DNA from: Thermoanaerobaculia bacterium
Lineage (GTDB): Bacteria > Acidobacteriota > Thermoanaerobaculia > Multivoradales > JAGPDF01
NCBI GenBank assembly: GCA_050186295.1
Contig: JBFWYP010000001.1
Location: forward strand, 70,069 to 134,068
Direction: 5' to 3'
DNA length: 64,000 bases
Numbering within the stretch: position 1 is the stretch's first letter; every line of letters starts with the position of its first letter. The notes beneath the pieces are model-generated. The model made no database searches. It saw only the letters and a program-made list of their open reading frames with translations, and was not told where the DNA came from. This document shows positions 36,438-62,860 of the stretch, in pieces. Made by a program: the position numbers and the translations under genes.

Positions 36438-36447
36438 GGACATCGCG

Positions 36448-46169: not shown

Positions 46170-46173
<4 letters not shown>

Positions 46174-48611
46174 GCAGGCTCCTCGTTCCAGGGCGCGGGG
46201 ATCGTACCATCCGCGCTCCCCGCGCCCGGCCCGCGACCGCCCGCGACGGAACGGGCGACCGCCAGGAGGAGCAGCAGTCCCACCACGACGACACCCATCG
46301 CCAGGTGCAGGGGTCGCCTGCTGATCCAGAACCGGACGCGGTGCGCCCCTGCCGGGACGCGGACGCCGAGCCGCGCGAGCTGCACGATCTCGGTCCGGGC
46401 CGGCGCTCCGTCGATCTCGGCCCGCCAGATCGGCAGATAGGCGCGGCGCAGGAAGAGGACGCTGTCCGAAGCGGCCAGAGCTTCGATCTCGACCTCCTCG
46501 GCAGCCTCGCGGACGATGCGGGCGGTCCCTCCCCCCCCGGAGCCGGTCGCGGTTTCCCCTCCGGCCTCCTCTCCTGCGCCCCCCGCCAGGATCGCCGTCT
46601 GGTGGGGATCGAAGTCGTTCGCGAAGATCGCCTCCATGGCGGCATTCATCTGCGGCGCCCGCACGATCCGCCCGGCGATCTCCACCTCGGCCGCGCGATC
46701 GACGGGCTCGTACACGTGGAGGTCGTTGCCCCACCAGCCCGGATAGCGCGCCAGCTCCCGCACGCGCGGCAACGCTTCCGGGTCGAGCTCGCGGTCGAGC
46801 AGGAGACGATCGACCCCGAGCGCCTCGAGGACGTCGATGCGCCGCGCGTCCGGGAAGCCGCGGAGACCGACGGTCACCGCCTGCGAGAGAAAGCTGTCGA
46901 GACCCTCCGGAGAGATCGCAAGCTCCGTCCGGCGACCATGAAGCACCGCCGTGAACGGGTAGAGCTCCTCCGCCGAGCGGCGCATCAGCCAGCGCAGCCT
47001 GCGGTCCGGGTAGTCGCCGGCAAGCATCGTGCTCGGCCGGAAGAAATCCTGGCTGGCTCCCTGCATCAGGACCGCGTCCTCCGGCACGACCGCGAGTACC
47101 TTCGGCGCCGCGAGGTAGGGGGCGATGTCGTCCATCGGCAGCGCCGGCCTCAGGAGCCAGAGCTGGAAGGCGGTCGCGCAGAAGAGCGCCAGGACTCCGG
47201 AGATCCCGGACCGGTGGCGGGACAGCGCGACGCAGAGGAGAAGCAGTCCGAGGACTCCGAGCGTCAGAAAGGCGACCCCCTGCAGGCGGATCGAGAGCTC
47301 GGCCAGGAGATTCGGCGGGACCTCGGTCGCGAGGAGCGAGGTGACGATCCGACCGAATCCTCGCGGCGCGAGCACCGCCGCGACGAGCGTCGCGAGATAG
47401 CCCGCCGCAATCGTCGCGAGCGCCAGTCCGAGCGGCCTCCTCCGGCCGCGCTCGAACGCCTCCGTGAAGCCGAGACCGGCGAGGAGGCTGGCTCCGAGCG
47501 CCGCAGCCAGCCAGAATTTCTGGGGAAAGCGGAGCGCCTCGCCCAGGGAGGTCCGGACCAGGAGGCGCAGGAGCGGATTGAACTGCCCCAGAGCGAAGAG
47601 GAATCCGAGAGCGATCGCACCCGCCGACCAGAGCTTCGCGCGCCGGCCGTCCTTCGCCAGCAGACCGAGCCCGACGAGAGCCAGCGCCAGAGCTCCCGGC
47701 GCCAGGGTGAAGAAGAGGGGGGGATAGCTGTCGAAGAGCCCGGGTGCGAGGTTCTCCGCGAGATCGGGGCGCCCGAAGAAGAAGGGAAAGAAGAGATCGG
47801 CGAGGTGCTGGAGCCGGAAGCTGCCGAGAAACGGCGGCGCCTCGCCGTTCCACTCGTTGGCCCGGAACGAGAAACCCAGGATGCGGAACGTCTCGACGAG
47901 CTGCGGCGCGGCGAGAAGCGTGCCGGCAGTCAGCGCGAGCAGGAGCCTGGCGTCGAGCAGAGCCCGCCACCTCGACCGGCTGCGGTCGCCCCCGCGCACG
48001 ACGCGCGCAGCCAGGGCGAGCAGCAGCGCGAGCAGGCCAAGCAGCGGTTCTCCGGCGAGAATCAGCAGCGTCCAGAGAAGTCCCGCCGCGACGAGCCCGC
48101 GACGACGGAGTTGCGGCATGTCCGATCCGCTCTCGACGAGCGCCGCTACGAGTGCCGGCGCCAGCGCCGCGCCGGCGACGACGTTGTAGAGATTGAGCGT
48201 GCTGACGAAGTAGCCGGAGGTCGCGTAGCACGCCGCCGTGGCCCAGGCCGACGGGCGCCCGAGCCCCCACGCGCGCCCCATCCAGTAGGCCGCCGCGAGC
48301 GCCACGAAGGCGTGCAGCCAGAAGTGGGCGTTGAAGCTCCAGAACCGTTCGCCGACCAGAGCAAGGAGGTTCGTCGGGTAGAACGGCAGCGCGTTGAGGT
48401 TGCCGGCGAGCGCCTGACCGCCGGCACGGAGCGGATCCACGAGAGGAATCGTTCCCGCGCGCCACGCGTCGACGAGCGAGATCCGCAGAAGGAAGTGGGT
48501 GTGCAGTACGTCGCGGAGGATGAGCGTCTTCCCTCCCGCGATGAGCGACCAGAAAGTCGCCGCGAGGAGCGCCGCCGTCGGCAGCACGTAGAGCGCGACG
48601 AAACGCTTCAT
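46170..48611 (-). CDS. Large polytopic membrane protein, GT-C/YfhO-like putative glycosyltransferase (paralog B)
   Basis: I trimmed the track ORF (to 51644) to the ATG at 48611, which overlaps the upstream paralog's stop as ATGA. 813 aa with a roughly 480 aa multi-TM N-terminus, a soluble C-terminal domain and a terminal TM helix. Confidence 0.8.
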
Positions 48612-50944
48612 GGTCGCAGGTATCCGAGCACGAGGGCGGCGAGGAGCGCGAGCAGTGCGATCCCGCCCGCCAGCTTCTCCGCGAGTCGCGATGTTCCGAT
48701 CACCACTTCCTGGCGTCCGGCCGGAACCTCGACTCCGAGGAGGGCGAGATTCGCCGGCTGCGTCGGCAGGCGAGTGCCGTCGGCGAGCCGCGCCTCGATC
48801 TCCGGAAAGAAGGCGCGCTGGACGACGGCGAGACCTCCCTCCCCTTCGACCGAGAAGCGCAGGCGATCGAAACGCTCGTCGAGGATCCGGATCGTGGCTC
48901 CCGGCGTGTGGCGCACCGGCCGGCTGGCGACCGCCGTGCCGGTCTCCTCCCGCGCGCTCTCCGTGCCGTGGTCGGCCAGGAGGGCGGCGATCGGCGAGTC
49001 GGCGACCACGATCCGCTCCGGCCAGATCACCCGGCCCGCCGAGTCTGAGACGCGGTAGAGCTCGCTGTCCACACCGTAGCGGCGATCTCTGGCGACCGGC
49101 GACCCCGGGGGCGGGTTGCCGTCGTCGTCGCGGCGCACGAACCAGTCGACCCCCTGCCGGCGGAACCAGCGCAGGCGATCCGGCCAGGGGGCCCGCGCCT
49201 GGTACTCCATCAGCAGGGAGCTCAACGGTGAATAGATTCCGTCGAAATCGGGAGCCTGCGGGTAGCGGAGGCCGTGCAGAGCCCCGGTCGCGACGTCGAG
49301 ATCGAGTCGCGCATCCCGCCAGGCGGCGGTTTCCGATTCGAAGGCGCGGCCGCCGCGATTCGACGACGGCGTCGACGGCGGCACGTCCCACAGCAGGACG
49401 ACGTCGGGGTCGTCGCGGAGCATCACGATCCAGGGCGCGGGTGGCGCGAACTCGTCGCGCCGCGCAGTGGTCAGGAGCGGCAGGAGTTGCGCCAGGGCGA
49501 GAAGCTGCGCCGCCAGCACGAGACCCGGGCGGTTCCGCCGCACTCCGATCGCCGCCACAGTGAGCAGCAGCGCCGCGAAGAGCGCCCCGAGGAACCACTG
49601 CGTCTGCTGGGTCGCGGCGACGGCGTGGCTCCGCGCGCCGAGCTCGTGCACGAACCGGTCGCGGATCGGGCCCCGCCCGAACCAGAGTCCGAGCGCTGCG
49701 AGCAGCGCCAGGAGCGCTCCGGCTCCGAGGCTCCGCCGCGACTGCGCGGTGGACGCTTCGTCGCGTTCGCGGAACCAGCGATCGAAGCCCCACCCGGCGA
49801 GCAGGGCGAGTGCCAGGGTCACCCAGAGCAGGAACTTCTGCGAGAAGCGGAAAAGCCCGCCAGTGAGCCGTAGCAGAACCTCTGCCGCCGGTCCGCCCAT
49901 CCAACCGAAGACGAGTCCGGCGACGACGAGCGCCGCCCAGCGCCACCTTCGGTAGGCCGCCAGCGCCGCTGCCAGCCCCACGACTCCACAGTAGAACGAG
50001 TAGATGTACGGTGTCAGCGGAGTCACGCTCGACCAGTAGCCGAAGCGGTCCAGGTTCGACGGCCACCCCCAGGGGAGCGGCAGCAGGAGCTCGAGCCAGC
50101 GGCCCGGCGGGAGCGAGTGCGCCGACACCTGGGCGACCGTGAGCCCGTGCGCGCCACGATAGGTGAAGTCGAGGATCCGCGCCGCGGCGACGATCTGCGG
50201 CGCCGCGATCAGCAGCCCGATCCCGCCGATCACCAGACAGTCGACGACACCGCGACGGAGGCCCCGACGCTCCCACGCCACCAGCAGCATCGGCACCGTG
50301 GCGAGCGCCGCGGTGACCGGCTCTCCGGCGAGGAGCATCATCCCGCAGGCGGCTCCTCCCCAGAGACATCCGCGTCGTCCTCCGCGTGCCACACCCCAGA
50401 GGACGAACGGCAGCCAGGCGACGACGGCGATCAGGTTGTAGAAGGTGAGGAGGGTCAGGACGTAGCCCGACGCGGCGAAGGTCAGCGCCGCGAACGTCGC
50501 CGCCGCGGCACTCTGTCCGAAGGTCCTCGCCAGGAGCCGCATGCCGAGGAACGCCAGGAGCCAGTGCAGGACGTAGTGCGCATTGAAGGCGACCCAGAAC
50601 GGAAGCGCCAGATAGAGCAGATTCCCGGGATAGAACGGCAACGCGTTGGGGTTGCCGGCGAACGGCTGACCGAGCGCCCGCGTGGTGTCGAAGGACGGAA
50701 TCTCGCCGCTCGCGAGTGCCTCGGCCCCGTAGTGCTTGAACGACAGATGGGTGGTGAACACGTCGCGCGCCAGGAGCGTGCGCCCGCCCGTGAGCAGCGG
50801 CCAGGAGAAGAAGAGCCAGGTGATCGCCAGCACGACGAGGAGCCAGCGGTCGACCCGCAGAGCCGGCGCCGGAGCGACCGGCCCGGAACCCGCCCCCGGG
50901 CCGTTCCCGTCGATCGCATCCGGCGCGCTTAGAATACCGGCCAT
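48608..50944 (-). CDS. Large polytopic membrane protein, GT-C/YfhO-like putative glycosyltransferase (paralog A)
   Basis: 778 aa. It shares N-terminal blocks with paralog B (G-x-TLL/I-ARDV..TH, NALPFYP-NLL, FNAH..LH) and the same overall architecture. Confidence 0.8.
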   Translation of the reverse strand: MAGILSAPDAIDGNGPGAGSGPVAPAPALRVDRWLLVVLAITWLFFSWPLLTGGRTLLARDVFTTHLSFKHYGAEALASGEIPSFDTTRALGQPFAGNPNALPFYPGNLLYLALPFWVAFNAHYVLHWLLAFLGMRLLARTFGQSAAAATFAALTFAASGYVLTLLTFYNLIAVVAWLPFVLWGVARGGRRGCLWGGAACGMMLLAGEPVTAALATVPMLLVAWERRGLRRGVVDCLVIGGIGLLIAAPQIVAAARILDFTYRGAHGLTVAQVSAHSLPPGRWLELLLPLPWGWPSNLDRFGYWSSVTPLTPYIYSFYCGVVGLAAALAAYRRWRWAALVVAGLVFGWMGGPAAEVLLRLTGGLFRFSQKFLLWVTLALALLAGWGFDRWFRERDEASTAQSRRSLGAGALLALLAALGLWFGRGPIRDRFVHELGARSHAVAATQQTQWFLGALFAALLLTVAAIGVRRNRPGLVLAAQLLALAQLLPLLTTARRDEFAPPAPWIVMLRDDPDVVLLWDVPPSTPSSNRGGRAFESETAAWRDARLDLDVATGALHGLRYPQAPDFDGIYSPLSSLLMEYQARAPWPDRLRWFRRQGVDWFVRRDDDGNPPPGSPVARDRRYGVDSELYRVSDSAGRVIWPERIVVADSPIAALLADHGTESAREETGTAVASRPVRHTPGATIRILDERFDRLRFSVEGEGGLAVVQRAFFPEIEARLADGTRLPTQPANLALLGVEVPAGRQEVVIGTSRLAEKLAGGIALLALLAALVLGYLRP

Positions 50945-51815
50945 GTCTCTCGCTCTCCTTCGCTCGCTGCGCCCTGCGCAGTGGGTGAAGAACCTCTTCG
51001 TCCTCGTCCCGCTGGTCTTCGCTCACCGGGCCGACGACCCCACGGTGGTGCGTCGCGCGGTCGTCGCCCTGCTCTGTTTCTGCGCCGCGTCGAGCGCCAT
51101 CTACCTCGTCAACGACCTCAGGGACCGCGACAGCGACCGCCATCATCCGCTGAAACGGCTGCGCCCGATCGCCTCCGGGCTGCTCTCCCCCGCCGTCGCG
51201 GCGGCCGCCGCCGCCGTGCTGCTGGCCGGCGCCTTCCTGGCCGCCCGGGGAGCGGGAAACCGCTTCCTGTTCGCGCTCGCTGCCTACGTCGTCCTCAACG
51301 TACTCTACTCGCTCGCCCTCAAGCGGATGGTGATCCTCGACGTCATGTCGATCGCCGCCGGCTTCGTCCTCCGGGTGCTCGCCGGCGCCGTCGCGATCGA
51401 CGTCGACGTCTCGAACAGGCACCAGCTCTGCACGACGTTCGTCGCGCTCTTCCTCGGCGTCTCCAAGCGCCGCCACGAGATCGCCGCGCTGCCGCCCGGG
51501 ACCCTCGGGACCCGCGCCGTGCTCGAGCAGTACAGCCTCACCTTCCTCGATCAGCTGATCAACGTCGTCACCGCGTCCACGGTTGTCGCCTACTCTCTCT
51601 ACACCGTCGATCCGGCGACCGCGGCGAGGCTGGGCACGCCTCACCTGGTCTGGACCGTCCCGCTGGTGCTGTTCGGGATCTTCCGCTTCCTCTTCCTGCT
51701 CTATCGCTCCGACGACGCCCGCAGCCCGACCGACGCGATCCTTCGGGATCCGCCCTTCCTCGCCAACCTCGCGCTCTGGGGAGTCGTGGTGCTCTCCTTG
51801 ATCTATGGCACCTGA
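50943..51815 (+). CDS. UbiA-family prenyltransferase resembling decaprenyl-phosphate phosphoribosyltransferase (DPPR synthase)
   Basis: I trimmed the track ORF from 50736 to the ATG at 50943. The LRPAQWVKNLFVLVPLVFA N-terminus and the first Asp-rich motif NDLRDRDSDRHHPLKRLRPIASG resemble the DPPR-synthase subfamily; 8-9 TM helices. Confidence 0.85.
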   Translation: MSLALLRSLRPAQWVKNLFVLVPLVFAHRADDPTVVRRAVVALLCFCAASSAIYLVNDLRDRDSDRHHPLKRLRPIASGLLSPAVAAAAAAVLLAGAFLAARGAGNRFLFALAAYVVLNVLYSLALKRMVILDVMSIAAGFVLRVLAGAVAIDVDVSNRHQLCTTFVALFLGVSKRRHEIAALPPGTLGTRAVLEQYSLTFLDQLINVVTASTVVAYSLYTVDPATAARLGTPHLVWTVPLVLFGIFRFLFLLYRSDDARSPTDAILRDPPFLANLALWGVVVLSLIYGT

Positions 51816-54303
51816 CCGCCGCCTGCGATACGCCTTTGCGGGTCTCTTCTTCGCCTCCGGCGCCGCCGGGCTCGTCGATCAGGTGGTCTGGCTGCGCTAT
51901 CTCGCGCTCGTCTTCGGCAACACGACCCTCGCCACGGCGACGATCCTCGCCGTCTTCCTGGGCGGTCTCGGCCTGGGCTCCTGGCTCTTCTCGCGTCACG
52001 CCGAGGCGCTCGCGGAGAGCGGCAGGGCGGTCGCCGTCTACGCGCTCCTCGAGGCGGGCGTCGGTCTCTTCGCGATCTTCTCGCCGCGACTCTTCGCCGC
52101 GATCGATTCGGTCTACATCGTGACCTACCGCTCGGTCGGCGACGAGCCGCTCCTCTTCGCGCTGCTCCGCGCGGCCCTCGCGGCGCTCGTTCTCCTCCCG
52201 CCGACGCTGCTCATGGGGGGCACGCTCCCCGTGCTGCTCGGCGCCCTCTCGCGCCGTCCGGAGGGCGAAACCGCGGGTCACCGGGAAGGGCGTGACACCG
52301 CGCTCCTCTACGGCGCCAACACCCTCGGCGCGATGGCCGGCGTCGGAGCCGCCGGCTTCTTCACCATCCGGCTGTTCGGCCTCGAAGCGAGCCTCCTCCT
52401 TTCGGCGGCGCTCAATCTCGCCGTCGCCCTGGTCGCGATCCTGCTGCAGCCGCCGAAGCGCCGCGCCCCGCCGTCAACGTCGTCGCCGGCAGCCGATCCG
52501 GCGCGATACCTGCTCCTCGCCGCGCTCTTCATGGGCGCGACCAGCATCGCCTGCGAGGTGCTCTGGACCCGGGTCCTCGTCTTCTACCTCGGGTCGAGCG
52601 TCTACGCCTTCAGCCTGATGCTGCTGCTCTTCCTCGCCGGCATCGCCATCGGCAGTCTCGCCGCCGCGCGCGTCGTCGACCGGGTGGAGCGCCCGGTGGT
52701 CCTGCTCTTCCGCCTCGAGCTGCTCCTCGCGCTGCTCACTCCGGTCTCGATCTGGCTCTTCGCGACCCTCGACGACCGGCTCATCGCGCTCTCCGAGGCG
52801 CTCGAGCCGCGCCGCTTCGGTGTCGCCGTGGTGGCGGAGCTCCTGGCGATCGCTCCCATCCTCCTGCCGCCGACCCTGCTGATGGGTTTCCGCTTCCCCG
52901 TCGCAGCCCGCGCCTACTCTCGACGGATCGGGACACTCGGCGCCGACGTCGGAAGGCTGTACGGAGCCAACACGGCAGGGTCGATCGTCGGCGCGCTGGG
53001 AGCCGGCTTCCTCCTGATCCCGCTCCTCGGCAGCCAGAACTCCCTCCTCGCAGTCGGCACGGCCAACGCCCTCGTTGCCGTCTGGCTGGCCCGCCGCGCG
53101 ACGCGCGACGCCCCCCTCCTCCCGGGGGACCGTCGTCTCGCGATCGCGGCCTGGCTCGTCGTGCCGGCACTCGTCCTGACGGGATCGCTTCTGCCGCCGG
53201 ATCGCGTGATCCTCGCTTCGGGCCTCTTCGCGAGCGACCGTCCGGGCGATCTTCTCTACTTCCAAGAGGACGCCAATGCGGCGGTCGCCGTGCGCAACAA
53301 ACACGACCCCGACGGCGACTACGTCTCGCTCGAGCTCAACGGCGTCAACGTCGCCGGGACCAGTCCGGACCTCTACGCCGTGCAGAAGCTGCAGGGGCAT
53401 CTGCCGCTCCTCCTTGGGAACCACGACGACGCCCGTGTCGTCCATATCGGATTCGGTAGCGGCGGCACGGCGCACGCGGTATCGCGCCACCCGGTGAGCG
53501 AGATCCGGATCGTCGAGATCAGTCCGGCGGTCCTGGCGGCTTCTGACCGCTACTTCGCCGGAATCAATCACGGCGTTCTCGCCGACCCGCGCGTGAAGGT
53601 CGAGATCAACGACGGACGCAACTTCCTGCTCGCGACACCGCTGGTCTTCGACGCGGTGCTGTCCGACTCGATCCATCCGCGCTACGCCGGCAACGGTTCT
53701 CTCTACAGCAAGGAGTACTTCGAGCTGGTGGCGAAACGTCTCGCTCCGGGCGGCGTCGTCTCGATGTGGCTGCCGATGTACTCTCTCACCACGTCGAACT
53801 ACGCGATGATCGTCCGCGCCTTCAGGGACGTCTTCCCCCACACCGTGATCTGGTACGAGCCGTCGGCGCTCAACTCGTTCACCGTCGTCACCGGGCGACG
53901 CTCCGGCGGACCCTGGGACGAGGCCGAGCTGGCGCGGAACTTCCGCGATCCGGCAGTCCTCGAAGCGCTCGCCGACATCGGCATGAGAACGCCGGCCGAC
54001 GTTCTCGCCTGCTACATCGTCTCCGGTCTCGAGCTCGACGCCTTCCTCGGTGGCGCGCCGCCGCACGTCGACGACCTGCCGGCCGTCGAGTACGAAAGCG
54101 GCACCCTGCTCGGCGCCAACTGGACCTGGCTCGAGACCTTCTCGCGGCTCCTCGCCAGCCGCCCGGTGGAAGTTCCCGACACGGTGCTCGAGGCGGTACC
54201 CGAAGACGAGCGCGAAGCGCTTCGGTCGGCGTGGACCGCGCGAGGACAGCACCTCGAGGGTCAACGGCAGTTCCTCGCCGCGAACGTCACCCGCTGGCAC
54301 TGA
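51805..54303 (+). CDS. Fused MFS-like membrane domain / spermidine-synthase-like (polyamine aminopropyltransferase fold) protein
   Basis: 832 aa with a roughly 450 aa, 12-TM N-terminus. The C-terminal class-I MTase/spermidine synthase fold carries VVHIGFGSGGTAH, EIRIVEISPAV, VEINDGRNF and FDAVLSDSIHP. Confidence 0.85.
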   Translation: MAPDRRLRYAFAGLFFASGAAGLVDQVVWLRYLALVFGNTTLATATILAVFLGGLGLGSWLFSRHAEALAESGRAVAVYALLEAGVGLFAIFSPRLFAAIDSVYIVTYRSVGDEPLLFALLRAALAALVLLPPTLLMGGTLPVLLGALSRRPEGETAGHREGRDTALLYGANTLGAMAGVGAAGFFTIRLFGLEASLLLSAALNLAVALVAILLQPPKRRAPPSTSSPAADPARYLLLAALFMGATSIACEVLWTRVLVFYLGSSVYAFSLMLLLFLAGIAIGSLAAARVVDRVERPVVLLFRLELLLALLTPVSIWLFATLDDRLIALSEALEPRRFGVAVVAELLAIAPILLPPTLLMGFRFPVAARAYSRRIGTLGADVGRLYGANTAGSIVGALGAGFLLIPLLGSQNSLLAVGTANALVAVWLARRATRDAPLLPGDRRLAIAAWLVVPALVLTGSLLPPDRVILASGLFASDRPGDLLYFQEDANAAVAVRNKHDPDGDYVSLELNGVNVAGTSPDLYAVQKLQGHLPLLLGNHDDARVVHIGFGSGGTAHAVSRHPVSEIRIVEISPAVLAASDRYFAGINHGVLADPRVKVEINDGRNFLLATPLVFDAVLSDSIHPRYAGNGSLYSKEYFELVAKRLAPGGVVSMWLPMYSLTTSNYAMIVRAFRDVFPHTVIWYEPSALNSFTVVTGRRSGGPWDEAELARNFRDPAVLEALADIGMRTPADVLACYIVSGLELDAFLGGAPPHVDDLPAVEYESGTLLGANWTWLETFSRLLASRPVEVPDTVLEAVPEDEREALRSAWTARGQHLEGQRQFLAANVTRWH

Positions 54304-54306
54304 GAG

Positions 54307-55296
54307 ATGGCTGAACCTCTCGAGGATGCGGACCCGGGCTCCCTTCCGGGAGGCTGGACGCGGCGACTCCGTCCGCACGAGTGGCTCACCCTCCTCTTCG
54401 CCGGACTCACCGCCGTCCTGTTCGCCTGGCGCGGGGAGCCGTTCACGGTCGGGCCGCTCCTGCGCGGTTACGGAAAGTTCGTCGGTGCGATCTCGCTGCT
54501 CCTCGTGCCGGCCTGGTACGTCGGCGAGCTCCGGCGCCGGCGGCTGGGGGAAGCCAGCCCGTCGTTCGCCGTGCAGCTCGCGGACTACCTGCGCTCGCTC
54601 GCGGTGCTCGTCCTCGCGCTGGTGGCCTACACCAACCTGAAGTGCCGCCTGCTCCTCCTCCACCCCCGGCTCTTCGACCGCGTCCTGGCGCGCCTCGACG
54701 CCATCCTGCACGCCGCGGGGGGCGACCTGGCCGGCTGGATCGCCTCGTTCCACTCGCCGGCGCGGACCGTCCCGTTCCATCACGTCTACTTCCTCGCCTG
54801 GGCGGCGTTCGCGCTGCCGCTCGCCGTCGCGGCCGCGGTCCGCGGAGCGGCGACCGTTCGCCGCGCTCTCACCGCGCTCACGATCCTCTACATCGCCGGC
54901 GTGCTGCTCTACCTCGCGGTCCCGTCACTTGGTCCGGCGCTGGTCGACCGCGCGGCGTTCCGCGCCCTCGACGGCACCGAGATGTTCACGCTGCAGACCG
55001 AGATGCTGGCGGCCCTCCGTTACACGGTCGAACACCCGCACGCTCCGGCGGTCCCGTTCTTCGGCCTCGCCGCCTTCCCGAGCCTCCACGTCGCTACCAG
55101 CTTCCTCGGCATCCTGGTCGCCTGGCGCACCTGGCGCCCGCTGCTCGTCCTGCTCGTCCCCTGGAATCTCGCCATCGCCGCCAGCGCGGTCTACTTCGGC
55201 TGGCACTACATCCTCGACTTCTATCCCGCGATCGGGCTGGCGTGGGGGTGCTGGTGGGTGGCCGGATCGCGGAGATTCGCCACCCCGGGCCCGTAG
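54307..55296 (+). CDS. PAP2-superfamily membrane phosphatase
   Basis: Polytopic membrane protein with PAP2-like motifs PSLH and WHYILD in the C-terminal helices; 3 nt after the upstream stop. Confidence 0.7.
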   Translation: MAEPLEDADPGSLPGGWTRRLRPHEWLTLLFAGLTAVLFAWRGEPFTVGPLLRGYGKFVGAISLLLVPAWYVGELRRRRLGEASPSFAVQLADYLRSLAVLVLALVAYTNLKCRLLLLHPRLFDRVLARLDAILHAAGGDLAGWIASFHSPARTVPFHHVYFLAWAAFALPLAVAAAVRGAATVRRALTALTILYIAGVLLYLAVPSLGPALVDRAAFRALDGTEMFTLQTEMLAALRYTVEHPHAPAVPFFGLAAFPSLHVATSFLGILVAWRTWRPLLVLLVPWNLAIAASAVYFGWHYILDFYPAIGLAWGCWWVAGSRRFATPGP

Positions 55297-55313
55297 CTAT
55301 ACTGCGACTCCCC

Positions 55314-57101
55314 GTGAAGAGCAGCCCCGGAACCACCGAATCGCAAGACCCTCCACCGGGCCGGCGAGCGACGATCGTCGCAGGAGCCGCGGCGGTCATC
55401 CTGTTCGGCGCTTCGATCCTGTTCCTTCACGTCCTCGCAGTCACCACCGAAAGCATCAACTGGGACGAGTTCGCGCTCTTCGCTCGCGCCGTCGATTCGG
55501 TCCAGGGAGGCAAACTGATCACCGGGGGCCGCCCCGGGCTCGGCGTCGTCTCGCTCATTCCGATCGCAGTCCCTTGCGAGAGCGAGGTCGCCACGGTGCA
55601 GCTGGGCAGATTCCTCTGGATCGGATGGACCCTGCTCGCCGGGCTTGCCCTCTGGTTGCTGGTTCGTCGCTGCCTAACCGGAGCGAAGGAGGCGCCGTGG
55701 GCGGCCGCGCTCGCGGTCGGGCTCTGGTTCCTCGTGCCCGTGGTCGAGAGATGGTCGCTCCATGTGCGCACCGATCAGCCCGCACTCGCTCTGGCTCTCC
55801 TGGGGACGCTCGGACTTCTCGACCGCCGCGGTCGACTCTTCACCGGAATCCTCTCGGGCGCGCTGTTCGGGCTGGGTTATCTCTTCTCCCAGAAGGCCGT
55901 GTACGTCGCCGCTCTGGGCATGCTGCTCTGGATGTTCGATCGATTTCCCGGCCTGCGCGGACTCCTGGCCAGCGAATGGAAGAGGCTCGTCGGCATCGGC
56001 GCCGGCGGCCTGGCGGTCCTGGCGGCATTTCGCATCGCCACCTCCCTCGCATTCGAGATCCCGGACGCGCTCACGATCGACCGCGCGCTGCGATTCCGTG
56101 CCGACTACTCGGACATGTCGGCATCGGCGCTGATCGGCGCAGGAGCGACCCTCGTTCCCCACCTCGTCCTCGTCCTGCTCATGCTCCTCGCGACTCACCG
56201 TCTCTGGGGCAGCGGTTCGCCCGAACAGACGCTGCTCCTGCGCTCCTGGGCCGTTCTCGCCCTCGGAGGAGCCGTTCTGCTCTTCCACACCAGCCGATTC
56301 GTCTATTTCTGGATCACTCTCGGCATCTTCCCCGCGGTCGCTCTGGCGCTCGCGCTGCCGGTGATCCGGCATGCCTTGCCGCCCGGCCTCGTACGCATCA
56401 CGCTGGCGACGACCATCCTCCTTCTCGCGATTCCGGGAATCTCCGCGGCGCGGTCGATGCTCCTCGATTCACAGCGGTTTCAGCGCGAGAGTCTGGAGTT
56501 CGTGGATCGCAACTTCTCCGACTCCGAAGCGGGATTTCAGCCCGAACGGGCGCTGTTCTGTCGCGACTCCGACGATCCCTTCCCCACCTACTTCACCCTG
56601 CGAATCGGCCGCGACTTTCGACCTGCGGCCCGGGGGAAGGCGGAAGAGTTCCTGCGCAAGTTCCGCGAGCGCCCCGTCTACTACATCGTCGATTCGCATC
56701 GGCTGTCGCTGTTTCCACCCGCGATCTGGGATTTCTGGAGAGCCCACTACGTGCCCTACTACTCTGCGGTCGCCATTCCGGGATTCACCGTGGACGGAGC
56801 CGGTCCGTCACCGCAGACCGGAGAGATCATCATTCCGGGCGACTACCGCTGGATCCCGCTCGCCTCGTCCTCGGGCGCCGCGCTACGCCTCGACGGAGTC
56901 GACCTGCCGGCCAGAGAGGCAAGGCACCTCGAGGCGGGAGCGCACAGCGTGGAAACGGGGTCCGGAGTCAGCGGCGTGGTCGCCTGGGCGCTCGCCGAGG
57001 AGCCCCATGATCCCCAACGGTCCTTCTACGGTCTCGCGATGCTGAATGAGTTCACCTACGGCAACGCTCGCGGCGCCACACGACGAAGGAAGGTGGACTG
57101 A
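55314..57101 (+). CDS. GT-C family membrane glycosyltransferase (ArnT/PMT_2-like), putative polyprenyl-phosphate-sugar dependent
   Basis: I trimmed the track ORF from 54381 to the GTG at 55314 (MKSSPG...). The first TM is followed by a loop with NWDEFALFARA (the DE motif of GT-C enzymes), about 11 TM helices, and a C-terminal soluble domain. Confidence 0.65.
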   Translation: MKSSPGTTESQDPPPGRRATIVAGAAAVILFGASILFLHVLAVTTESINWDEFALFARAVDSVQGGKLITGGRPGLGVVSLIPIAVPCESEVATVQLGRFLWIGWTLLAGLALWLLVRRCLTGAKEAPWAAALAVGLWFLVPVVERWSLHVRTDQPALALALLGTLGLLDRRGRLFTGILSGALFGLGYLFSQKAVYVAALGMLLWMFDRFPGLRGLLASEWKRLVGIGAGGLAVLAAFRIATSLAFEIPDALTIDRALRFRADYSDMSASALIGAGATLVPHLVLVLLMLLATHRLWGSGSPEQTLLLRSWAVLALGGAVLLFHTSRFVYFWITLGIFPAVALALALPVIRHALPPGLVRITLATTILLLAIPGISAARSMLLDSQRFQRESLEFVDRNFSDSEAGFQPERALFCRDSDDPFPTYFTLRIGRDFRPAARGKAEEFLRKFRERPVYYIVDSHRLSLFPPAIWDFWRAHYVPYYSAVAIPGFTVDGAGPSPQTGEIIIPGDYRWIPLASSSGAALRLDGVDLPAREARHLEAGAHSVETGSGVSGVVAWALAEEPHDPQRSFYGLAMLNEFTYGNARGATRRRKVD

Positions 57102-57161
57102 CGTGTCCCCGACAACCTCGCAACTCTTCACGGCCGATCGACATACCCGCCCGGGGACATC

Positions 57162-58337
57162 GTGAAGAAGCTGCGCACGAAGTCCGACCTCGCGATCCAC
57201 GGGGCCCCGCCCGCATTCGAGTCTCCGCTCCACGTAGGCCGTCCGAACATCGGGGATCGCAACCGGTTCCTGGAGCTGGCAAGCGAAGTCCTCGATCGGG
57301 CGTGGCTCACGAACAACGGCCCCCTCGTGCAGGAACTGGAAGCACGACTGGCGCGAGTTCTCGAGGTTCGGCACTGCATCGCCATGTGCAACGGAACCGT
57401 CGCGCTCGAAACGGCGATCCGTGCGACCGGCCTCCGTGGCGAGGTCATCGTTCCTTCGTACACGTTCATCGCGACCGCACACGCGCTCCACTGGCACGGC
57501 CTCACCCCGGTCTTCGCGGACATCGACCTCCACACGCACTCGCTCGATCCCGAGTCGGTTCGATCGAAGATCACTGCCCGCACCAGCGCGATCCTCGGAG
57601 TCCACCTCTGGGGCCGACCGGCTGCGCACGCCGAGCTCGAACGGATCGCTTCCGAGCACGGCCTCGCGCTCCTCTACGACGCCGCCCACGCCTTCGGCTC
57701 GACGCTGGATTCTCGCCCGGTCGGTCGCCTCGGACGATGCGAGGTGTTCAGTTTCCACGCAACGAAGTACTTCAGTTGCGGCGAGGGCGGTGCCGTCACC
57801 ACGAACGACGATCAGCTGGCGGAGAAGATCCGACTGATGAGGAACTTCGGCTTCGCGGGATTCGACAACGTCGTTCACCCCGGAACGAACGCCAAGATGC
57901 CCGAGATGTCCGCGGCTCTCGGCCTCTCGAACCTCGACAGCCTGGACCGGATACTCGATTGGAACCGACGAAACTTCGAGCTCTACGCCGAAGCGCTCTC
58001 CGGCCTTCCCGGCATCTCCCTTTTCGAGCCGCCTCCGTCCGAGCGCTCCAACTATCAGTACGTCGTCGTCGAAACGCACGAGGACTGCACGGCTTCGCGG
58101 GACGAGCTCCTCGCCACTCTCCACGCCGAGAACGTGTTGGCGAGGAGGTACTTCTGGCCCGGGTGTCACCGCATGCTTCCCTACCGCGAGAGCGACCCCG
58201 GCGCAGCCGAGCACCTTTCCCGCACGGAGGTCGTCGCCGGACGCGTCATCGTGCTCCCGACCGGACTCGCGATTTCGGAAGAGGAGATCCGGATCGTGGC
58301 GTCCATCCTCGAAATCGCGCTGTCCCGACGCCGGTGA
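57162..58337 (+). CDS. DegT/DnrJ/EryC1/StrS family sugar aminotransferase (PLP-dependent)
   Basis: 391 aa with the conserved SFHATKYFSCGEGG lysine region; GTG start at 57162. Confidence 0.9.
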   Translation: MKKLRTKSDLAIHGAPPAFESPLHVGRPNIGDRNRFLELASEVLDRAWLTNNGPLVQELEARLARVLEVRHCIAMCNGTVALETAIRATGLRGEVIVPSYTFIATAHALHWHGLTPVFADIDLHTHSLDPESVRSKITARTSAILGVHLWGRPAAHAELERIASEHGLALLYDAAHAFGSTLDSRPVGRLGRCEVFSFHATKYFSCGEGGAVTTNDDQLAEKIRLMRNFGFAGFDNVVHPGTNAKMPEMSAALGLSNLDSLDRILDWNRRNFELYAEALSGLPGISLFEPPPSERSNYQYVVVETHEDCTASRDELLATLHAENVLARRYFWPGCHRMLPYRESDPGAAEHLSRTEVVAGRVIVLPTGLAISEEEIRIVASILEIALSRRR

Positions 58338-59473
58338 GCCTTCGCCCACGCGGCCTTCTCATCTTCGGCGGGTCGAACAACCGAGCCGTCGTCGCGCTCT
58401 CTCGAGCCCTCACCGCGCTCTCGCTTCCTTTCCACATCATCGCCAGGAACGGCGCTGACCCCGTGCTCAGGACACGGTTCTCGCGCCACGTCTCGTCGAT
58501 CCGCACCTCCGAGGAGCTCGATCTCGATCGGTTCGCAGGCTGGATCTCCGATGCGACTTCCCGGTCGCCGGGAGTCGACTGGACGATCGCTCCCACTTCC
58601 GAGTTCGTGAACCTCTGGATGCTCCGCGAGCGCGACGGCATCGAATCCCTCGGCGCCCGCGTCCCTCTCGTCGAGGCACCGCTCTACGACTCGTTGACGA
58701 ACAAATGGAGCGCGTCGCAGCTGTTCGGGAGCCGCGGGATCCGAGTTCCCGCACTCAGAACCGGCTTCCTCTCCGAGGCATTGCCGCTCGTCGCCAAGCC
58801 TCACAGGAATCTGGGAGCCGCAGGCCGCATGCTCTATCCGTGGATCATCCGCAGCAGGCATCAACTCGACGTGTTCCTGGAGTCCGAGAACCCAGACGAC
58901 TATTTTCCCCAGGAGCTCGTGCGGGGCGACAGCTTCTACCTCCTGCTCCACTTGGCTCGCAATGGCAGGGTGACGGCATCGAGCCAGCGAAACATCGCCC
59001 AACAGGCGGGGGGTCGATCGATCGTGCTCGCCGAGACCTCGGACTTCCACTGTCAGCCGGTCGCGGACCGGGCAATCACCGTGCTCCGGGATGCGGGCTT
59101 TCGCGGGCTTGCGATGATCGAGTTTCTCGTCGACCGATCGGACGCCTGTTTCATCGAGATCAACCCGCGGGCCTGGGGGCCACTCCAACTCTGCCTGGAT
59201 CACGCCAGCGGTATAGTCGAATCGTTCCTCGGTGACGAATTGTTCGACGACGAGACGAAATTTCTCGAAACGGCCGACCGACGGCCCAAGCGTGCGGCCT
59301 ACTCGTGGATGGGGGGATGGTTCGACGAGTGGCGCGCGCGGAGGCCCGTGCATTGGTGCGGTGGTTTCCGCCCTCCACTCTCGCTTCGTCTGAGATTGCT
59401 GTCCGGTGACGTATACCTGCGTCGAGACACCTGGAGGCTCACCCTCTCGTCGGAGCAGTCTCGTGCCCGATGA
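58334..59473 (+). CDS. ATP-grasp domain protein (putative amide ligase)
   Basis: I trimmed the track ORF from 57302 to the GTG at 58334, which overlaps the degT stop as GTGA. ATP-grasp core with IEINPRAWGP; about 379 aa. Confidence 0.75.
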   Translation: MSLRPRGLLIFGGSNNRAVVALSRALTALSLPFHIIARNGADPVLRTRFSRHVSSIRTSEELDLDRFAGWISDATSRSPGVDWTIAPTSEFVNLWMLRERDGIESLGARVPLVEAPLYDSLTNKWSASQLFGSRGIRVPALRTGFLSEALPLVAKPHRNLGAAGRMLYPWIIRSRHQLDVFLESENPDDYFPQELVRGDSFYLLLHLARNGRVTASSQRNIAQQAGGRSIVLAETSDFHCQPVADRAITVLRDAGFRGLAMIEFLVDRSDACFIEINPRAWGPLQLCLDHASGIVESFLGDELFDDETKFLETADRRPKRAAYSWMGGWFDEWRARRPVHWCGGFRPPLSLRLRLLSGDVYLRRDTWRLTLSSEQSRAR

Positions 59474-60326
59474 TCCGACCGACGAGCTGAAGCAACTGCT
59501 CTCGTCGCTCTATGGGGACGCTTCGAAGCACTCCGGATATCAGACCATGCCGGATTTCGTGGCCGAACGTCTCGGCTTCCAGAGTGTGATCGATCAACGC
59601 TGGCGTGGCGACCGAGTTCGTCTCGACTACATCCGACGCGTCATCCGGGACGACCCGCAATCGTGGTGCGATTTCGGCGCAAACACCGGCTTCTTCTCGC
59701 TTTCGCTCGCGGAGGCAAGTCCGCGAACGGAAGTCCTCGCAGTCGAAGCGAATCCTCGACACGCGGAGCTGATCGAACGGGTCTCCGCAGCCTGTCGACT
59801 CCCGAACCTCCGCGTACTGTCGCGGTCGATCGGAATCCGGGAGCTCGACGAGCTCGGACGAGTGGACGTTCTCCTGCACATGAACGTCCTTCACCATGCA
59901 GGAGTCGACTTCGACACCGATGTGGTCGGCGGCCCTGGTGAATTCGCGGACTACGCCATCCACTACCTCACTCGCGTCGCTGCGATCTCCGACCGCCTCG
60001 TTTTCCAGGCGGGCGTCAACCTCGGAGGTGACAAGAGCCGTCCGATTCTCGACCGGGCCGACCACGCGACGCGAACGAGGTACTGGTCCGATCTGCTGAG
60101 GGCGGCCGGTTGGCGGGTCCTGGACTGCGCGCTCGCACGGAGCGAGTCGAACGGCTCGGTGGCGTACCTCAGCATGCCGGCGCGCCTTCTGGAGTTCCTC
60201 GGATCGCCGCGCGACGAACCGGGCGCCGTCATGGACGAATGGTTCGCCGGCCTCGGTCTCGACCGCCACCCGGGCGAGTTTTTTCTGCGGCCGATCTTCT
60301 ACTGCGCCGCCGGGAGGGGTCGCTAG
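59406..60326 (+). CDS. FkbM-family SAM-dependent methyltransferase
   Basis: DFGANTGFFSLSLAE matches the FkbM family motif D-x-GAN-x-G. The start may be the later ATG at 59547; I cannot resolve the 68 nt overlap with the ATP-grasp ORF. Confidence 0.65.
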   Translation: MTYTCVETPGGSPSRRSSLVPDDPTDELKQLLSSLYGDASKHSGYQTMPDFVAERLGFQSVIDQRWRGDRVRLDYIRRVIRDDPQSWCDFGANTGFFSLSLAEASPRTEVLAVEANPRHAELIERVSAACRLPNLRVLSRSIGIRELDELGRVDVLLHMNVLHHAGVDFDTDVVGGPGEFADYAIHYLTRVAAISDRLVFQAGVNLGGDKSRPILDRADHATRTRYWSDLLRAAGWRVLDCALARSESNGSVAYLSMPARLLEFLGSPRDEPGAVMDEWFAGLGLDRHPGEFFLRPIFYCAAGRGR

Positions 60327-61783
60327 GAGGGACCTCCATCGGACATGTCGATCCCGAGGAGGAAGTCTCGCTCATCGTGCCTCCGATTCCACGGCACTCC
60401 CTGCCAGGCGGTTCCACCGAGATACAACGCGAAAAACAGTCCTGCCGAGACCGTGAGGCGGGACAGCGGCGACTCTGCGAGCTCCGAAGCCAGTTTCGCG
60501 CCCCCTCCGGCCAGGGCATTGAGCAACACGATCCGGCCCAGATGACGGAGCTGGGGCGCGAGCCCGTAGCCCAGCCACCGATCGGAGTACCGGAGGTTCG
60601 CGACCAGTGCTACAGCGCTCGCCAGCGCGAAGGCCCAGGCGACACCGATCGCGCCGAACCCTGATCCCGCGACGATCGCGACGATGAGAATCGACTTCTT
60701 TACGATCTCGAGCTTCAGGAATCTCCGCGCGTGGCCCATGGCCTTCAGCGCCGCGAGATTGATCGCGCTCACCGGCGCGAACAGCGCGGCCAGAGCGAGA
60801 ATCGCGAGAACCGGCCCCGTCTCCGACCAGTCCGGACCGAGAAGGATCGCGACGAGGTCCTTCGCCCCGATCGACAGCAGGAGCATGCAGGGCATGAACA
60901 GGAACTGCGCGGTTGCATTCCAGTGACGAATCGCTCGCCGGAGCGCCGAACGATCGGTCGCGATTTCGGAGAGGACAGGAAGCCCGGTCCGATCGATCAA
61001 CCGCGTCGCGAGGAAGGTAGGAACCTGCTGGACGTTCTGGGCCAGGGAGAACCGACCGACCGTGCCGCTGTCGAACTTCCACCCCAGGATCAGGGCGTGG
61101 AGGCGAGTCGACAGCGTGTCGAGAAGTGAGGAGAGCGCCAGGAAGCCGCCGAATCCGACCAGGTCCCGGATCGCGGATCGTCGGACGCGACCTCGCGGTC
61201 GCCAGCCGGAGAACATCCACAAGCCGAGGACCCGCAGGGCCATCGTCCCGAGCGTGAAGACGATCAGGCTCCAGAGACCGCGCCCCCGGGCAGCGAGCAG
61301 AACAGCTCCCGCTCCGGCGGCGAGCGATGCACCGATCTCGATCGCCGCACGGCGCTGGAACCGCAACGCCCTCACCAGGAATCCGTCCGGCACCGCGACG
61401 AGCGAACCCAGCGGTAGCGCCAGGGAGAGCCATCGGACCAGGAAGAGCAGACCGGGTTCGCCGAACGATCTGGAAAGCCACGGCGCAGCGGCCCAGAGCA
61501 TCGCCCCTGCGATGCTTCCGCAGGCGAAAGAGGCGAGGAGCGCCGAAACCCGGTGATCCTCGGTGACGTCGGGCAGCTGGACCAGCGCAGCCCCGAAACC
61601 CGAATCGCTCAGGATGAGTCCGAGGCTGACGAAGACCATGGCGATCGAAAGCAGTCCGAATTCGCCGGGGGAAAGGAGACGTGCAAGCAACAGGAACACC
61701 AGCATCTGAATTCCGTATCGCGCGACGAGCTCGACGCCCCCCCACATCGCCACGTGTACGATGCTCCTGCGGAGCGCCTTCAT
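60323..61783 (-). CDS. Polysaccharide biosynthesis protein, Wzx-like flippase (MOP superfamily)
   Basis: About 12-14 TM helices with a typical Wzx/PST-family N-terminus; I trimmed the start to MKALRRSIVHVAMWGG. Confidence 0.8.
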   Translation of the reverse strand: MKALRRSIVHVAMWGGVELVARYGIQMLVFLLLARLLSPGEFGLLSIAMVFVSLGLILSDSGFGAALVQLPDVTEDHRVSALLASFACGSIAGAMLWAAAPWLSRSFGEPGLLFLVRWLSLALPLGSLVAVPDGFLVRALRFQRRAAIEIGASLAAGAGAVLLAARGRGLWSLIVFTLGTMALRVLGLWMFSGWRPRGRVRRSAIRDLVGFGGFLALSSLLDTLSTRLHALILGWKFDSGTVGRFSLAQNVQQVPTFLATRLIDRTGLPVLSEIATDRSALRRAIRHWNATAQFLFMPCMLLLSIGAKDLVAILLGPDWSETGPVLAILALAALFAPVSAINLAALKAMGHARRFLKLEIVKKSILIVAIVAGSGFGAIGVAWAFALASAVALVANLRYSDRWLGYGLAPQLRHLGRIVLLNALAGGGAKLASELAESPLSRLTVSAGLFFALYLGGTAWQGVPWNRRHDERDFLLGIDMSDGGPS

Positions 61784-61831
61784 GACGCAGAGCTCTCGGC
61801 TTGCCACCGCGGAACGGAAGTCGACGGCACG

Positions 61832-62860
61832 CTAGGCTCCTCGCCTTCCGAAGAGAACTCGCTCGGCCACCTGCCGGAAAACATAGAGCAAAGCCGCCGG
61901 ACGGGCCGCCACTTCCGAGAGGAAGGCCCGGCAGAACTCCAGGCTCGCCCGCGCTTCGCCCGCCCTCAAAGCTGCTGCGATACCCTTCAACGCCTGTCCC
62001 GTTCGACGGTCGGCCAATCGTCCGCGGACCCAAGGGTCCGAGCTCATCTCCGCGACGACCTCGAACGTCCGCCTGCGGAACCGGGCCCGCTGGATCCCCG
62101 ATCGCAGACTCCAGACACCCCCCCGATGCACGCGATAAACCACCGGCTGCATGTCCGGTCGTGCGATCGCCATTCCGAATCGACCCAACCATGCCCAGAA
62201 AACCGTGTCTGCGTTCACGACGTCGAGGATGGACTCCGGGAACGAGGGGTCCGAGAGCACATTTCGGAAAAGTACCGACTGGTTGATGATCGGTTCTCCG
62301 GCTGCCAACTCGCGCCGGCTCACGTCGCGGAACAGTCGGCGGGGAACGAAGTACTCGGTCGTCCGCCTTCCGTCGATCTCGCGCACGGCGTTCGTCATGC
62401 ACATGACGGCGTCCGGACGGGTGTGAAGCGTCTCGACCTGCGCCGACAACTTGGTCTCGTCCATCCAGTAGTCGTCGCCGTCGAGCCAGGCGACGAACTC
62501 TCCGCGACAGCGCGAGAGGAGGTCGAGCAGGTTGAATCGTCCGGTCTGAACCCCGTCGATCACGATCCGGTTCTCCGGTCGCTGCAGGATCAGCCGGATC
62601 CGCCCAGCGTTCCTGCTCGCGATGTCCCTGCAGATCTCTCTCGTCCCGTCCGTGGAGGCATCTTCGCCGACGAGAATCTCGAAACCGAAGTCCGTGCGTT
62701 GCGCGAGAACGGACTCCAACGCCTGGGCGATGAAATTCCGATGATTGTAGGTGGGAACGATGACCGACACCAACGGAGAGTCGGGAACCTCGTTCGCGAC
62801 CTCGAGGGGAGCCACTTTTCGAACACGCGCGACGAGACGGTCGAGTTCGCGGATCACGCG
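61832..62860 (-). CDS. Glycosyltransferase family 2
   Basis: VSVIVPTYNHRNFIAQALESV, ILVGEDASTDGT and DGDDYW motifs. I trimmed the start to the GTG at 62860 so it does not overlap the upstream GT26 gene. Confidence 0.85.
   Translation of the reverse strand, partial: RVIRELDRLVARVRKVAPLEVANEVPDSPLVSVIVPTYNHRNFIAQALESVLAQRTDFGFEILVGEDASTDGTREICRDIASRNAGRIRLILQRPENRIVIDGVQTGRFNLLDLLSRCRGEFVAWLDGDDYWMDETKLSAQVETLHTRPDAVMCMTNAVREIDGRRTTEYFVPRRLFRDVSRRELAAGEPIINQSVLFRNVLSDPSFPESILDVVNADTVFWAWLGRFGMAIARPDMQPVVYRVHRGGVWSLRSGIQRARFRRRTFEVVAEMSSDPWVRGRLADRRTGQALKGIAAALRAGEARASLEFCRAFLSEVAARPAALLYVFRQVAERVLFGRRGA

Follow-up and report, generated by a model that had tools for sequence, protein, structure and literature searches.

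The question raised by the locus at positions 46170-57101 of this DNA is whether its genes make a lipid-linked pentose and attach it to the cell envelope. The window, by which we mean the whole 64 kb stretch that was analysed, comes from a metagenome-assembled genome (MAG) of an uncultured soil or water bacterium of the class Thermoanaerobaculia, phylum Acidobacteriota, and has a GC content of ~70%; this is the non-actinobacterial, high-GC host that an earlier note on this DNA had expected from the letters alone. The interval extends exactly from the stop codon of gene A to the stop codon of gene F and holds six genes (Table 1), which code for two paralogous membrane proteins of GT-C glycosyltransferase fold (A and B), a UbiA-superfamily protein (C), a membrane protein fused to a spermidine synthase-like domain (D), a PAP2-superfamily protein (E) and a further GT-C-fold protein (F). 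Overall we find that A to E are a module that is a core-genome feature of the class, and that F is the first gene of an adjoining island. We favor, with a probability of roughly 0.6, the reading that A to E are a conserved extracytoplasmic pentofuranosylation module of the Thermoanaerobaculia, in which the transferred sugar is most simply ribofuranose.

C encodes a DPPR synthase-type enzyme

C carries the motifs LRPAQWVKN and NDLRDRDSDRHHPLKRLRPIASG, from which it had been likened to Rv3806c, the decaprenylphosphoryl-5-phosphoribose (DPPR) synthase (DPPRS) of mycobacteria. This assignment is upheld by the scores of C on family models and by its alignment with the solved enzyme. Specifically, C scores 276.9 bits on NF008977, the NCBIfam equivalog model of decaprenyl-phosphate phosphoribosyltransferase (cutoff 234), and 41.5 bits or less on every quinone, heme or chlorophyll prenyltransferase model, which is at least 235 bits below the NF008977 score. 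The next models outside the DPPRS type are the prenyltransferase model PRK12884 (41.5 bits), a UbiA-like model (34.3 bits) and heme o synthase (33.5 bits). A grouping of C with quinone or heme prenyltransferases, which the earlier note had named as the outcome that would overturn its assignment, was checked with these model scores and does not hold.

C also matches the solved structure of Rv3806c (PDB 8J8J) over its full length (E 3.6e-29, residues 5-277). Of the 13 residues of Rv3806c with a role in binding decaprenyl phosphate, Mg2+ or phosphoribosyl pyrophosphate (PRPP), as given in PMC10994848, this alignment shows 10 to be identical in C (R22, K28, Y70, N73, D77, K87, R90, Y138, K143 and K191), among them K28 and Y70, which bind the 5'-phosphate, and N73 and D77, which bind Mg and ribose. 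The remaining three differ (Q135 to N, Y157 to F and K208 to A), and the Y157 to F substitution occurs in some mycobacteria (PMC10994848). The Mg/ribose motif N-D-x-x-D-x-x-x-D is present in C as N-D-L-R-D-R-D-S-D. C is a stand-alone enzyme of 290 aa. On NF006088, a model of 482 residues that probably describes the HAD-fused type, its match is to the UbiA half and reaches 187.4 bits, below the cutoff of 351. These sequence comparisons place C with the DPPR synthases and apart from the prenyltransferases of quinone and heme synthesis. A look-up of the exact sequence of C was empty, and the 99% identical protein P0001 stood in for it; this nearest UbiA homolog is from a Thermoanaerobaculia MAG, as is every other close homolog.

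A and B are paralogous GT-C-fold proteins

The earlier note had counted three GT-C-like membrane proteins, and this count holds for A, B and F, as seen from structural models and from paralogy. None of the three has a Pfam or NCBIfam match at normal thresholds. A and B are 28% identical over their full length (E 6e-25), and A ends in a beta-rich extracytoplasmic domain and a last transmembrane (TM) helix. On the Pfam YfhO model (PF09586, cutoff 28.5) A reaches 13.2 bits, a faint C-terminal match, and B 8.4 bits, both below threshold; among sampled members of the A/B family, 18 of 38 match YfhO at E<=0.01 (best 7.7e-9). A and B therefore appear by sequence to be distant relatives of YfhO and not clear members of that family. 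For the A/B family 403 homologs can be detected, most of them in Thermoanaerobaculia.

An AlphaFold2 model of B, built with 38 homologs, has a pLDDT of 89.4 and a pTM of 0.91. Its best solved structural neighbor is AftD, with 18% identity in the structural alignment, and AftA is also among the best neighbors. AftD is an enzyme that uses decaprenyl-P-arabinofuranose; B has no match to Pfam DUF3367. The corresponding model of F has a pLDDT of 89.9 and a pTM of 0.90, with Foldseek matches to ALG12, EmbB, AglB, ArnT (TM-score 0.5) and ALG9. By such structure comparison B and F clearly have a GT-C fold in their models, as does A by paralogy. GT-C enzymes carry a catalytic acid just after the first TM helix. 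At this position B has an invariant R60-D61-V62 (R60-D61 in 38 sequences including A), the RDV motif is kept in A, and F has D51-E52, invariant in 39 homologs; the models would place the acidic residues of B and F in the first extracytoplasmic loop. A is likewise predicted to be an extracytoplasmic glycosyltransferase that uses a lipid-linked pentose. Sequence searches of the PDB with A, E and F returned nothing useful.

The divergent UbiA-A/B pair is conserved across Thermoanaerobaculia

We next compared gene neighborhoods by scanning a genome collection for relatives of C, which gave 74 loci against which the window proteins were run by tblastn; homologs of B and C were also looked up with precomputed Pfam annotation. 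Single-linkage clustering of open reading frames (ORFs) from 79 loci was confounded by the antisense ORFs of high-GC DNA and was used only for picking Pfam representatives.

Next to UbiA and divergent from it, an A/B-like gene is present in each Thermoanaerobaculia-type locus that has sufficient flanking sequence, which amounts to ~35 loci (L002-L030, L070, L075, L078, L080, L081 and L087), down to 43% identity for B and 51% for UbiA. A PAP2_3 gene of the E type lies on the same strand no more than 4 kb downstream of UbiA in ~15 loci, either directly after UbiA (L008, L029 and L087) or after D (~12 loci). The recurrence of the divergent A/B-DPPRS pair in ~35 related loci, usually with a PAP2_3 gene, thus indicates that the core module is real. 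This conserved synteny ties A and B to UbiA, a tie that the earlier note had drawn for all three GT-C proteins and that does not extend to F (see below). In most loci accC-accB follow A. In L080 (12335-15344) and L081 (15555-18358) the order UbiA-B-A-accC-accB is followed by an lpxL-like gene, lpxK and waaA, the latter for Kdo transferase; this context is a hint that the acceptor could be lipid A/core. In the L020-L028 subclade, GT4 and GT2 glycosyltransferase genes follow UbiA in place of PAP2_3.

A proposed pathway

We propose that the module works in four steps. At the cytoplasmic face C would move ribose-5-phosphate from PRPP to a polyprenyl phosphate, probably undecaprenyl phosphate (Und-P), to give polyprenyl-P-5-phosphoribose, a step that is strongly supported by the sequence of C. 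E would then strip the 5-phosphate to yield polyprenyl-P-ribofuranose; its role as a polyprenyl-P-ribose-5-phosphate phosphatase is suggested by its conserved adjacency and by analogy with the mycobacterial PAP2 protein Rv3807c and with HAD-PRP phosphatases, and is weakened because the motifs of E are atypical. The lipid-linked sugar would subsequently be brought to the outer leaflet, possibly via the MFS-like membrane domain of D. Finally, B and A would pass the pentofuranose to an envelope acceptor; here the fold and the first-loop Asp are seen in the models, and we infer the donor and the acceptor. The latter could be lipopolysaccharide (LPS) or lipid A-core, another lipoglycan, or a polysaccharide.

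The phosphatase, the sugar and the donor

Several points weigh against this pathway, and they are best considered together with the alternatives on which they bear. The functions of the module in this clade are predicted from sequence, models and synteny, and B reaches no Pfam threshold. No GtrA, SMR or MATE flippase is present among the called genes at 40.9-61.8 kb (L001 annotation); candidates for this role are the MFS-like domain of D and the Wzx-like gene of the island (Table 1). An E-like gene is missing beside UbiA in the L020-L028 subclade, in L080 and in L081, so a phosphatase gene is not an obligatory part of the cluster. In E, the two arginines that bind phosphate in the canonical PAP2 motifs are replaced (KX6RP to KX6HP and SRX5HX3D to SAX5HX3D), and E has no pairwise similarity to a canonical DPPRS-adjacent PAP2 protein (BLASTP E 6.3). 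Finally, the epimerase search covered 64 kb of this genome, and epimerases could lie elsewhere in it.

The points on E deserve closer attention. The earlier note had placed a PAP2 phosphatase two genes downstream of UbiA, which is correct inasmuch as E lies two genes after C on the same strand and belongs to the PAP2 superfamily. The comparison with Rv3807c was not sustained. Specifically, the best family of E is PAP2_3 (PF14378; E 1.7e-19, 70.9 bits), and on PAP2 (PF01569) it reaches 26.3 bits, just under the cutoff of 27.2. Its motifs read K112-x6-H119-P, P258-S-L-H261 and S293-A-x5-H300-x3-D304, with K112, H135, H261 and H300 conserved in at least 90% of 25 homologs. As comparator, standing in for Rv3807c, we used the 178-aa PAP2 protein of a PAP2-DPPRS-GtrA arrangement on pKVP1 of Streptomyces viridifaciens, which scores 60.7 bits on PF01569, contains the canonical KX6RP, PSSH and SRX5HX3D motifs, and is the protein to which E has no similarity. 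By sequence E is at best an analogue of the Rv3807c-type enzyme and not an ortholog, and its link to the DPPRS is one of conserved adjacency only. Locus L079 (Ilumatobacteraceae), considered for an Rv3807c ortholog, was dropped, as the UbiA hit there adjoins cytochrome oxidase and is probably a heme o synthase.

With both motif arginines lost, E may instead be a phosphotransferase. The PAP2_3 branch contains phosphotransferases such as inositol phosphorylceramide (IPC) synthase. E could act on another envelope lipid, such as lipid A or undecaprenyl-PP, or carry out an AUR1/SMS-type headgroup transfer, with the 5-phosphate removed by an unlinked phosphatase or with A and B transferring ribose-5-phosphate. 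This alternative is compatible with the rest of the model. In its favor are the branch to which E belongs, the replaced arginines of the C1 and C3 motifs, the lack of similarity to the canonical DPPRS-adjacent PAP2, the UbiA-A/B loci without E, a PAP2_3 gene beside homologs of F with no UbiA nearby, and the multiplication of PAP2_3 paralogs (five in tandem in L027, two in L005). Against it, three independent arrangements (L008, L029 and L087) have an E-type gene immediately after UbiA in the same orientation and ~12 more loci have one after D, the catalytic His-His(-Asp) residues are conserved, and in mycobacteria it is a PAP2-superfamily enzyme that removes the 5-phosphate (PMC11127046). On balance we consider this alternative unlikely, and prefer E as the phosphatase of the pentofuranosylation pathway.

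The paralogs themselves were observed close to the A/B-UbiA module. With 27-30% identity to E, they number at least four in tandem in L027 (~440-7400), where tblastn gives up to five hits, and two in L005 (1208-3312), beside accB. This tandem expansion is not explained by a single housekeeping phosphatase role.

With regard to the sugar, two tblastn queries were used, the DprE1 of Mycobacterium tuberculosis, confirmed by a full-length PDB match of 1058 bits, and an unverified DprE2 sequence. Neither query has a match at E<=0.01 in the window, in line with the earlier note, which had seen no such pair in the 64 kb, and neither has one within +/-10 kb of UbiA in the ~35 Thermoanaerobaculia loci. 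As a positive control, the same search found DprE1 and DprE2 beside UbiA in L039 (299 and 117 bits) and L057 (224 and 108 bits). Ribofuranose is thus the simplest sugar, as no DprE1/DprE2 or other epimerase is found in the window or in the ~35 related loci.

The same pathway could nonetheless deliver arabinofuranose or xylofuranose if unlinked epimerases of the DprE1/DprE2 or ORF13 type act before flipping. The best structural neighbors of B, AftD and AftA, are mycobacterial arabinofuranosyltransferases, in another acidobacterial lineage, Terriglobales (L039), the DPPRS homolog has DprE1 and DprE2 as immediate neighbors, and the search of this genome had the 64 kb scope given above. Set against this are the lack of DprE1 and DprE2 around UbiA in the window and the related loci, the clustering of the epimerases with UbiA in those other lineages where they are present, and a published survey in which epimerases are encoded inside the modification loci (PMC11127046). 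We therefore regard an epimerized sugar as quite unlikely, and ribofuranose is the sugar that we retain for the module. In L039 (7029-10794; a Terriglobales MAG, Acidobacteriota) and L057 (4112-8449; an unclassified MAG) DprE1 and DprE2 adjoin the DPPRS homolog; both loci are candidate arabinofuranose-donor pathways outside the Actinobacteria.

A more far-reaching proposal is that A to E do not add side chains but form the core of a class-wide synthesis, on the outer side of the membrane, of a riban or arabinan-like pentofuranan or lipoglycan by two AftD-like GT-C enzymes, as a non-actinobacterial counterpart of arabinan synthesis. Its accessory parts, both without precedent in such pathways, would be a PAP2_3 enzyme for processing polyprenyl-P-5-phosphoribose and an MFS/spermidine synthase-fold fusion as flippase or modifier. 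We hold this to be improbable and offer it as speculation.

Characterised YfhO proteins use C55-P-hexose or C55-P-GlcNAc donors. It is highly improbable that the neighborhood is coincidental, with the UbiA product a non-glycan lipid or cofactor intermediate and with A, B and F using Und-P-hexose or Und-PP-oligosaccharide donors, for although these YfhO donors, the separate island of F and the DPPRS homologs of other phyla in housekeeping contexts (rmlD, SIS, uridine-kinase-like, ispE, prs, L25, pth and H+-PPase) without an adjacent GT-C would agree with it, the divergent UbiA-A/B pair, with starts overlapping or ~50 nt apart, persists at identities as low as 43-51% in all loci of the clade, amid changing neighbors, and the core A-E cluster has no GT2-type polyprenyl-P-hexose synthase (GtrB/CsbB-like).

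F heads a lower-GC glycan island

F was considered for the core module and rejected because of its base composition and the neighborhoods in which its homologs lie. Specifically, the GC content of F is 0.664 relative to 0.69-0.72 for A to E, and it is 0.64-0.66 from F onward (55314-64000). Among the loci compared, F adjoins the module only in this genome; its homologs elsewhere have Bac_transf, PAP2_3 or Wzx genes as neighbors and are not near a UbiA gene. The F family has 159 homologs, and Pfam PMT_2 is matched by 17 of 39. The region from F onward looks like a variable, possibly acquired, glycan island that abuts the conserved module, and the link of F to the pentose donor is uncertain, in that it may or may not share a donor with A and B. 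In addition to the genes listed in Table 1, the island after F holds an ATP-grasp protein and a methyltransferase. Homologs with 40-42% identity to F directly follow a Bac_transf initiating transferase in L082 (8001-11087), L083 (1209-4295) and L084 (5011-8123), and in two of these three contigs the F homolog directly precedes a 384-aa PAP2_3 gene, a pairing of F and PAP2_3 that is independent of UbiA.

D is an MFS/spermidine synthase-like fusion

The earlier note had left D undescribed. As a candidate for the third GT-C it was rejected, as it is an MFS/spermidine synthase-like fusion with 136 bits on NF037959 (fused MFS/spermidine synthase, cutoff 40) and an E of 5e-20 to Pfam Spermine_synth. 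Spermidine synthases need the aspartates of two motifs for aminopropyl transfer. When D is aligned to a plant spermidine synthase these motifs are changed, GGGDGG to GFGSGG and DSSDP to DSIHP, so that D is, as far as its sequence tells, probably not an aminopropyltransferase. D lies between C and E in ~17 Thermoanaerobaculia loci and is missing in others; its position is kept only in the closest clade, and a link of D to DPPRS was looked for outside that clade and not found. We regard D as a candidate flippase or modifier.

Relation to known pentofuranose systems

The earlier note had presented the system as uncharacterised outside the mycobacterial arabinan context. In this respect it has been overtaken, as the pathway logic was published in 2024 and the locus holds no new concept. 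Experiments with Citrobacter youngae have shown that its O antigen receives alpha-ribofuranose in the periplasm (Kelly et al., PNAS 2024, PMC11127046). Its O1/O2 genes ORF15-ORF14-ORF12 code for a HAD-PRP-UbiA fusion synthase homologous to Rv3806c, a MATE flippase and the GT-C that founded GT136, epimerases can turn the donor into xylofuranose or arabinofuranose, and systems of a polyprenyl-phosphate 5-phosphoribosyltransferase (PPPRS), a flippase and a GT-C for pentofuranose are widespread, also in Gram-negative bacteria (PMC11127046). A Pseudomonas aeruginosa system for pilin arabinosylation is cited there as well. PAP2_3, YfhO and Acidobacteria are not mentioned in that paper or its supplement, and our literature searches found none on YfhO with DPPRS, none on PF14378 and none on acidobacterial DPPRS systems.

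The module resembles that of C. youngae in its UbiA-type PRPP enzyme, the proposed removal of the 5-phosphate and transfer by a GT-C outside the cytoplasm, ribofuranose as the sugar expected where there is no epimerase, and a diderm host. However, there are several differences. In C. youngae the synthase carries the phosphatase as a fused HAD (PRP) domain, whereas C stands alone, the module has no HAD phosphatase gene (L001 annotation), and the PAP2_3 protein is the only candidate. Systems of the C. youngae type have a MATE or GtrA flippase, neither of which is in this module. Their GT-C is of GT136, EpsG-like with a carbohydrate-binding module, and those here are distantly YfhO/AftD-like, families that we set apart by description. 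Finally, C. youngae has a serotype-specific addition to its O antigen, in contrast to a core-genome feature of a whole class.

The mycobacterial decaprenylphosphoryl-arabinose (DPA) pathway consists of Rv3806c, Rv3807c, DprE1/DprE2, Rv3789 and the Aft/Emb enzymes. Relative to it the window lacks DprE1/DprE2, E shares neither sequence similarity nor the motif arginines with the small canonical PAP2 type, and there is no analog of Rv3789 (GtrA/SMR-type); the acidobacterial host has no arabinogalactan. AftD differs from B by the low identity and the lack of a DUF3367 match noted above. The YfhO/CsbB/GtcA systems of Firmicutes are alike in having a YfhO-family GT-C that works outside the membrane with a polyprenyl-monophosphate-sugar donor and that has a C-terminal extracytoplasmic domain and a terminal TM helix. 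Their donor synthase is a GT2 enzyme (CsbB/GtrB), whereas here it is a PRPP-dependent UbiA enzyme with no GtcA/GtrA, the host is a diderm without teichoic acids, and A and B are below the Pfam YfhO threshold. The arabinosylation of group IV pilin in P. aeruginosa (PPPRS, DprE1/E2 homologs and TfpW) and the plasmid clusters of Burkholderia, Lactococcus and Streptomyces also combine a DPPRS with a large polytopic protein. They differ in having GtrA, a HAD or canonical PAP2 phosphatase and sometimes DprE1/E2, none of which is present here.

The present module thus differs from the published systems in its GT-C and PAP2 branches, in having no recognised flippase, in the added MFS/spermidine synthase-like protein and in class-wide core-genome conservation. 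If the reading is correct, a whole class of widespread, almost uncultured Acidobacteriota decorates a core envelope glycan with a pentofuranose, which is probably ribofuranose. The pathway would likewise gain a GT-C lineage (YfhO/AftD-like), a candidate phosphatase branch (PAP2_3) and possibly a new flippase type. This would provide concrete enzymes for glycoengineering, as well as a test case for donor specificity versus fold in GT-C enzymes, with AftD as the nearest solved structure.

Wider distribution of DPPRS homologs

DPPRS homologs with 32-51% identity to C occur in many phyla, and 95 plasmid or megaplasmid records of PLSDB carry one, including those of Rhizobium (34 records), haloarchaea (38-42% identity) and dairy Lactococcus. 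The Lactococcus plasmid has the order large membrane protein-DPPRS-HAD phosphatase-GtrA, and its large membrane protein has no BLASTP similarity to A, B or F. The Burkholderia order is large membrane protein-methyltransferase-UbiA-FAD oxidase-two short-chain dehydrogenases/reductases (SDRs)-GtrA, where UbiA has 472 aa and is longer than C, and a Streptomyces replicon has PAP2-DPPRS-GtrA. A phage-labelled contig from human faeces (MT837543.1) also encodes a DPPRS homolog. In Eisenbacteria-like or unclassified MAGs (L036, L041, L044, L047, L048 and L054; ~6800-16800) the DPPRS homolog lies in a conserved housekeeping array with no adjacent GT-C, in the order sugar nucleotidyltransferase, RmlD-like, SIS, uridine-kinase-like, UbiA, IspE-like GHMP kinase, PRPP synthetase, L25, Pth and H+-PPase.

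Gene organization and genomic context

Mechanical ORF lists at ~70% GC are full of spurious frames. Genes were called with a frame plot of third-position GC (GC3), which gives a single clear coding frame over 44-60.5 kb, and these calls equal the NCBI calls on the near-identical MAG contig L001.

Table 1. Genes of the interval and of the adjoining island, with positions in the window.
Feature	Positions	Strand	Length	Description
A	46170-48611	-	813 aa	polytopic GT-C-fold protein, paralog of B, distantly YfhO-like
B	48608-50944	-	778 aa	GT-C-fold protein, distant YfhO family, AftD-like fold; divergent from C
C	50943-51815	+	290 aa	UbiA-superfamily polyprenyl-phosphate 5-phosphoribosyltransferase (DPPRS/PPPRS type)
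D	51805-54303	+	832 aa	~14 TM helices, spermidine synthase-fold domain and C-terminal domain
E	54307-55296	+	329 aa	PAP2-superfamily integral membrane protein, PAP2_3 branch
F	55314-57101	+	595 aa	GT-C-fold protein, distantly PMT_2/ArnT-like; first gene of lower-GC glycan island
DesI-like	57162-58337			sugar aminotransferase; island
Wzx-like	60323-61807	-		flippase; island
GT2	61832-63031	-		glycosyltransferase; island

The spacing of C to F is operon-like, with an 11-nt overlap between C and D and gaps of 3 nt between D and E and 17 nt between E and F. The ATG of A overlaps the stop codon of B (ATGA), which argues that B and A are co-transcribed. The divergent ATG codons of B and C overlap by 2 nt (50943-50944), leaving no intergenic promoter region, and the promoters would therefore lie inside each other's gene unless the true starts are further downstream. 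The same 2-nt overlap of divergent starts is called in a relative with 45% identity (L087, 10001-10002), and other relatives have a gap of ~50 nt.

Upstream of the module (23876-40714) the window has a housekeeping context. This includes mraY, a Mur ligase and a PASTA-containing penicillin-binding protein of the dcw cluster (23.9-28.8 kb), a SurA-like peptidyl-prolyl isomerase, mfd (32431-35886), pntB and a protein with BNR/sortilin-like repeats.

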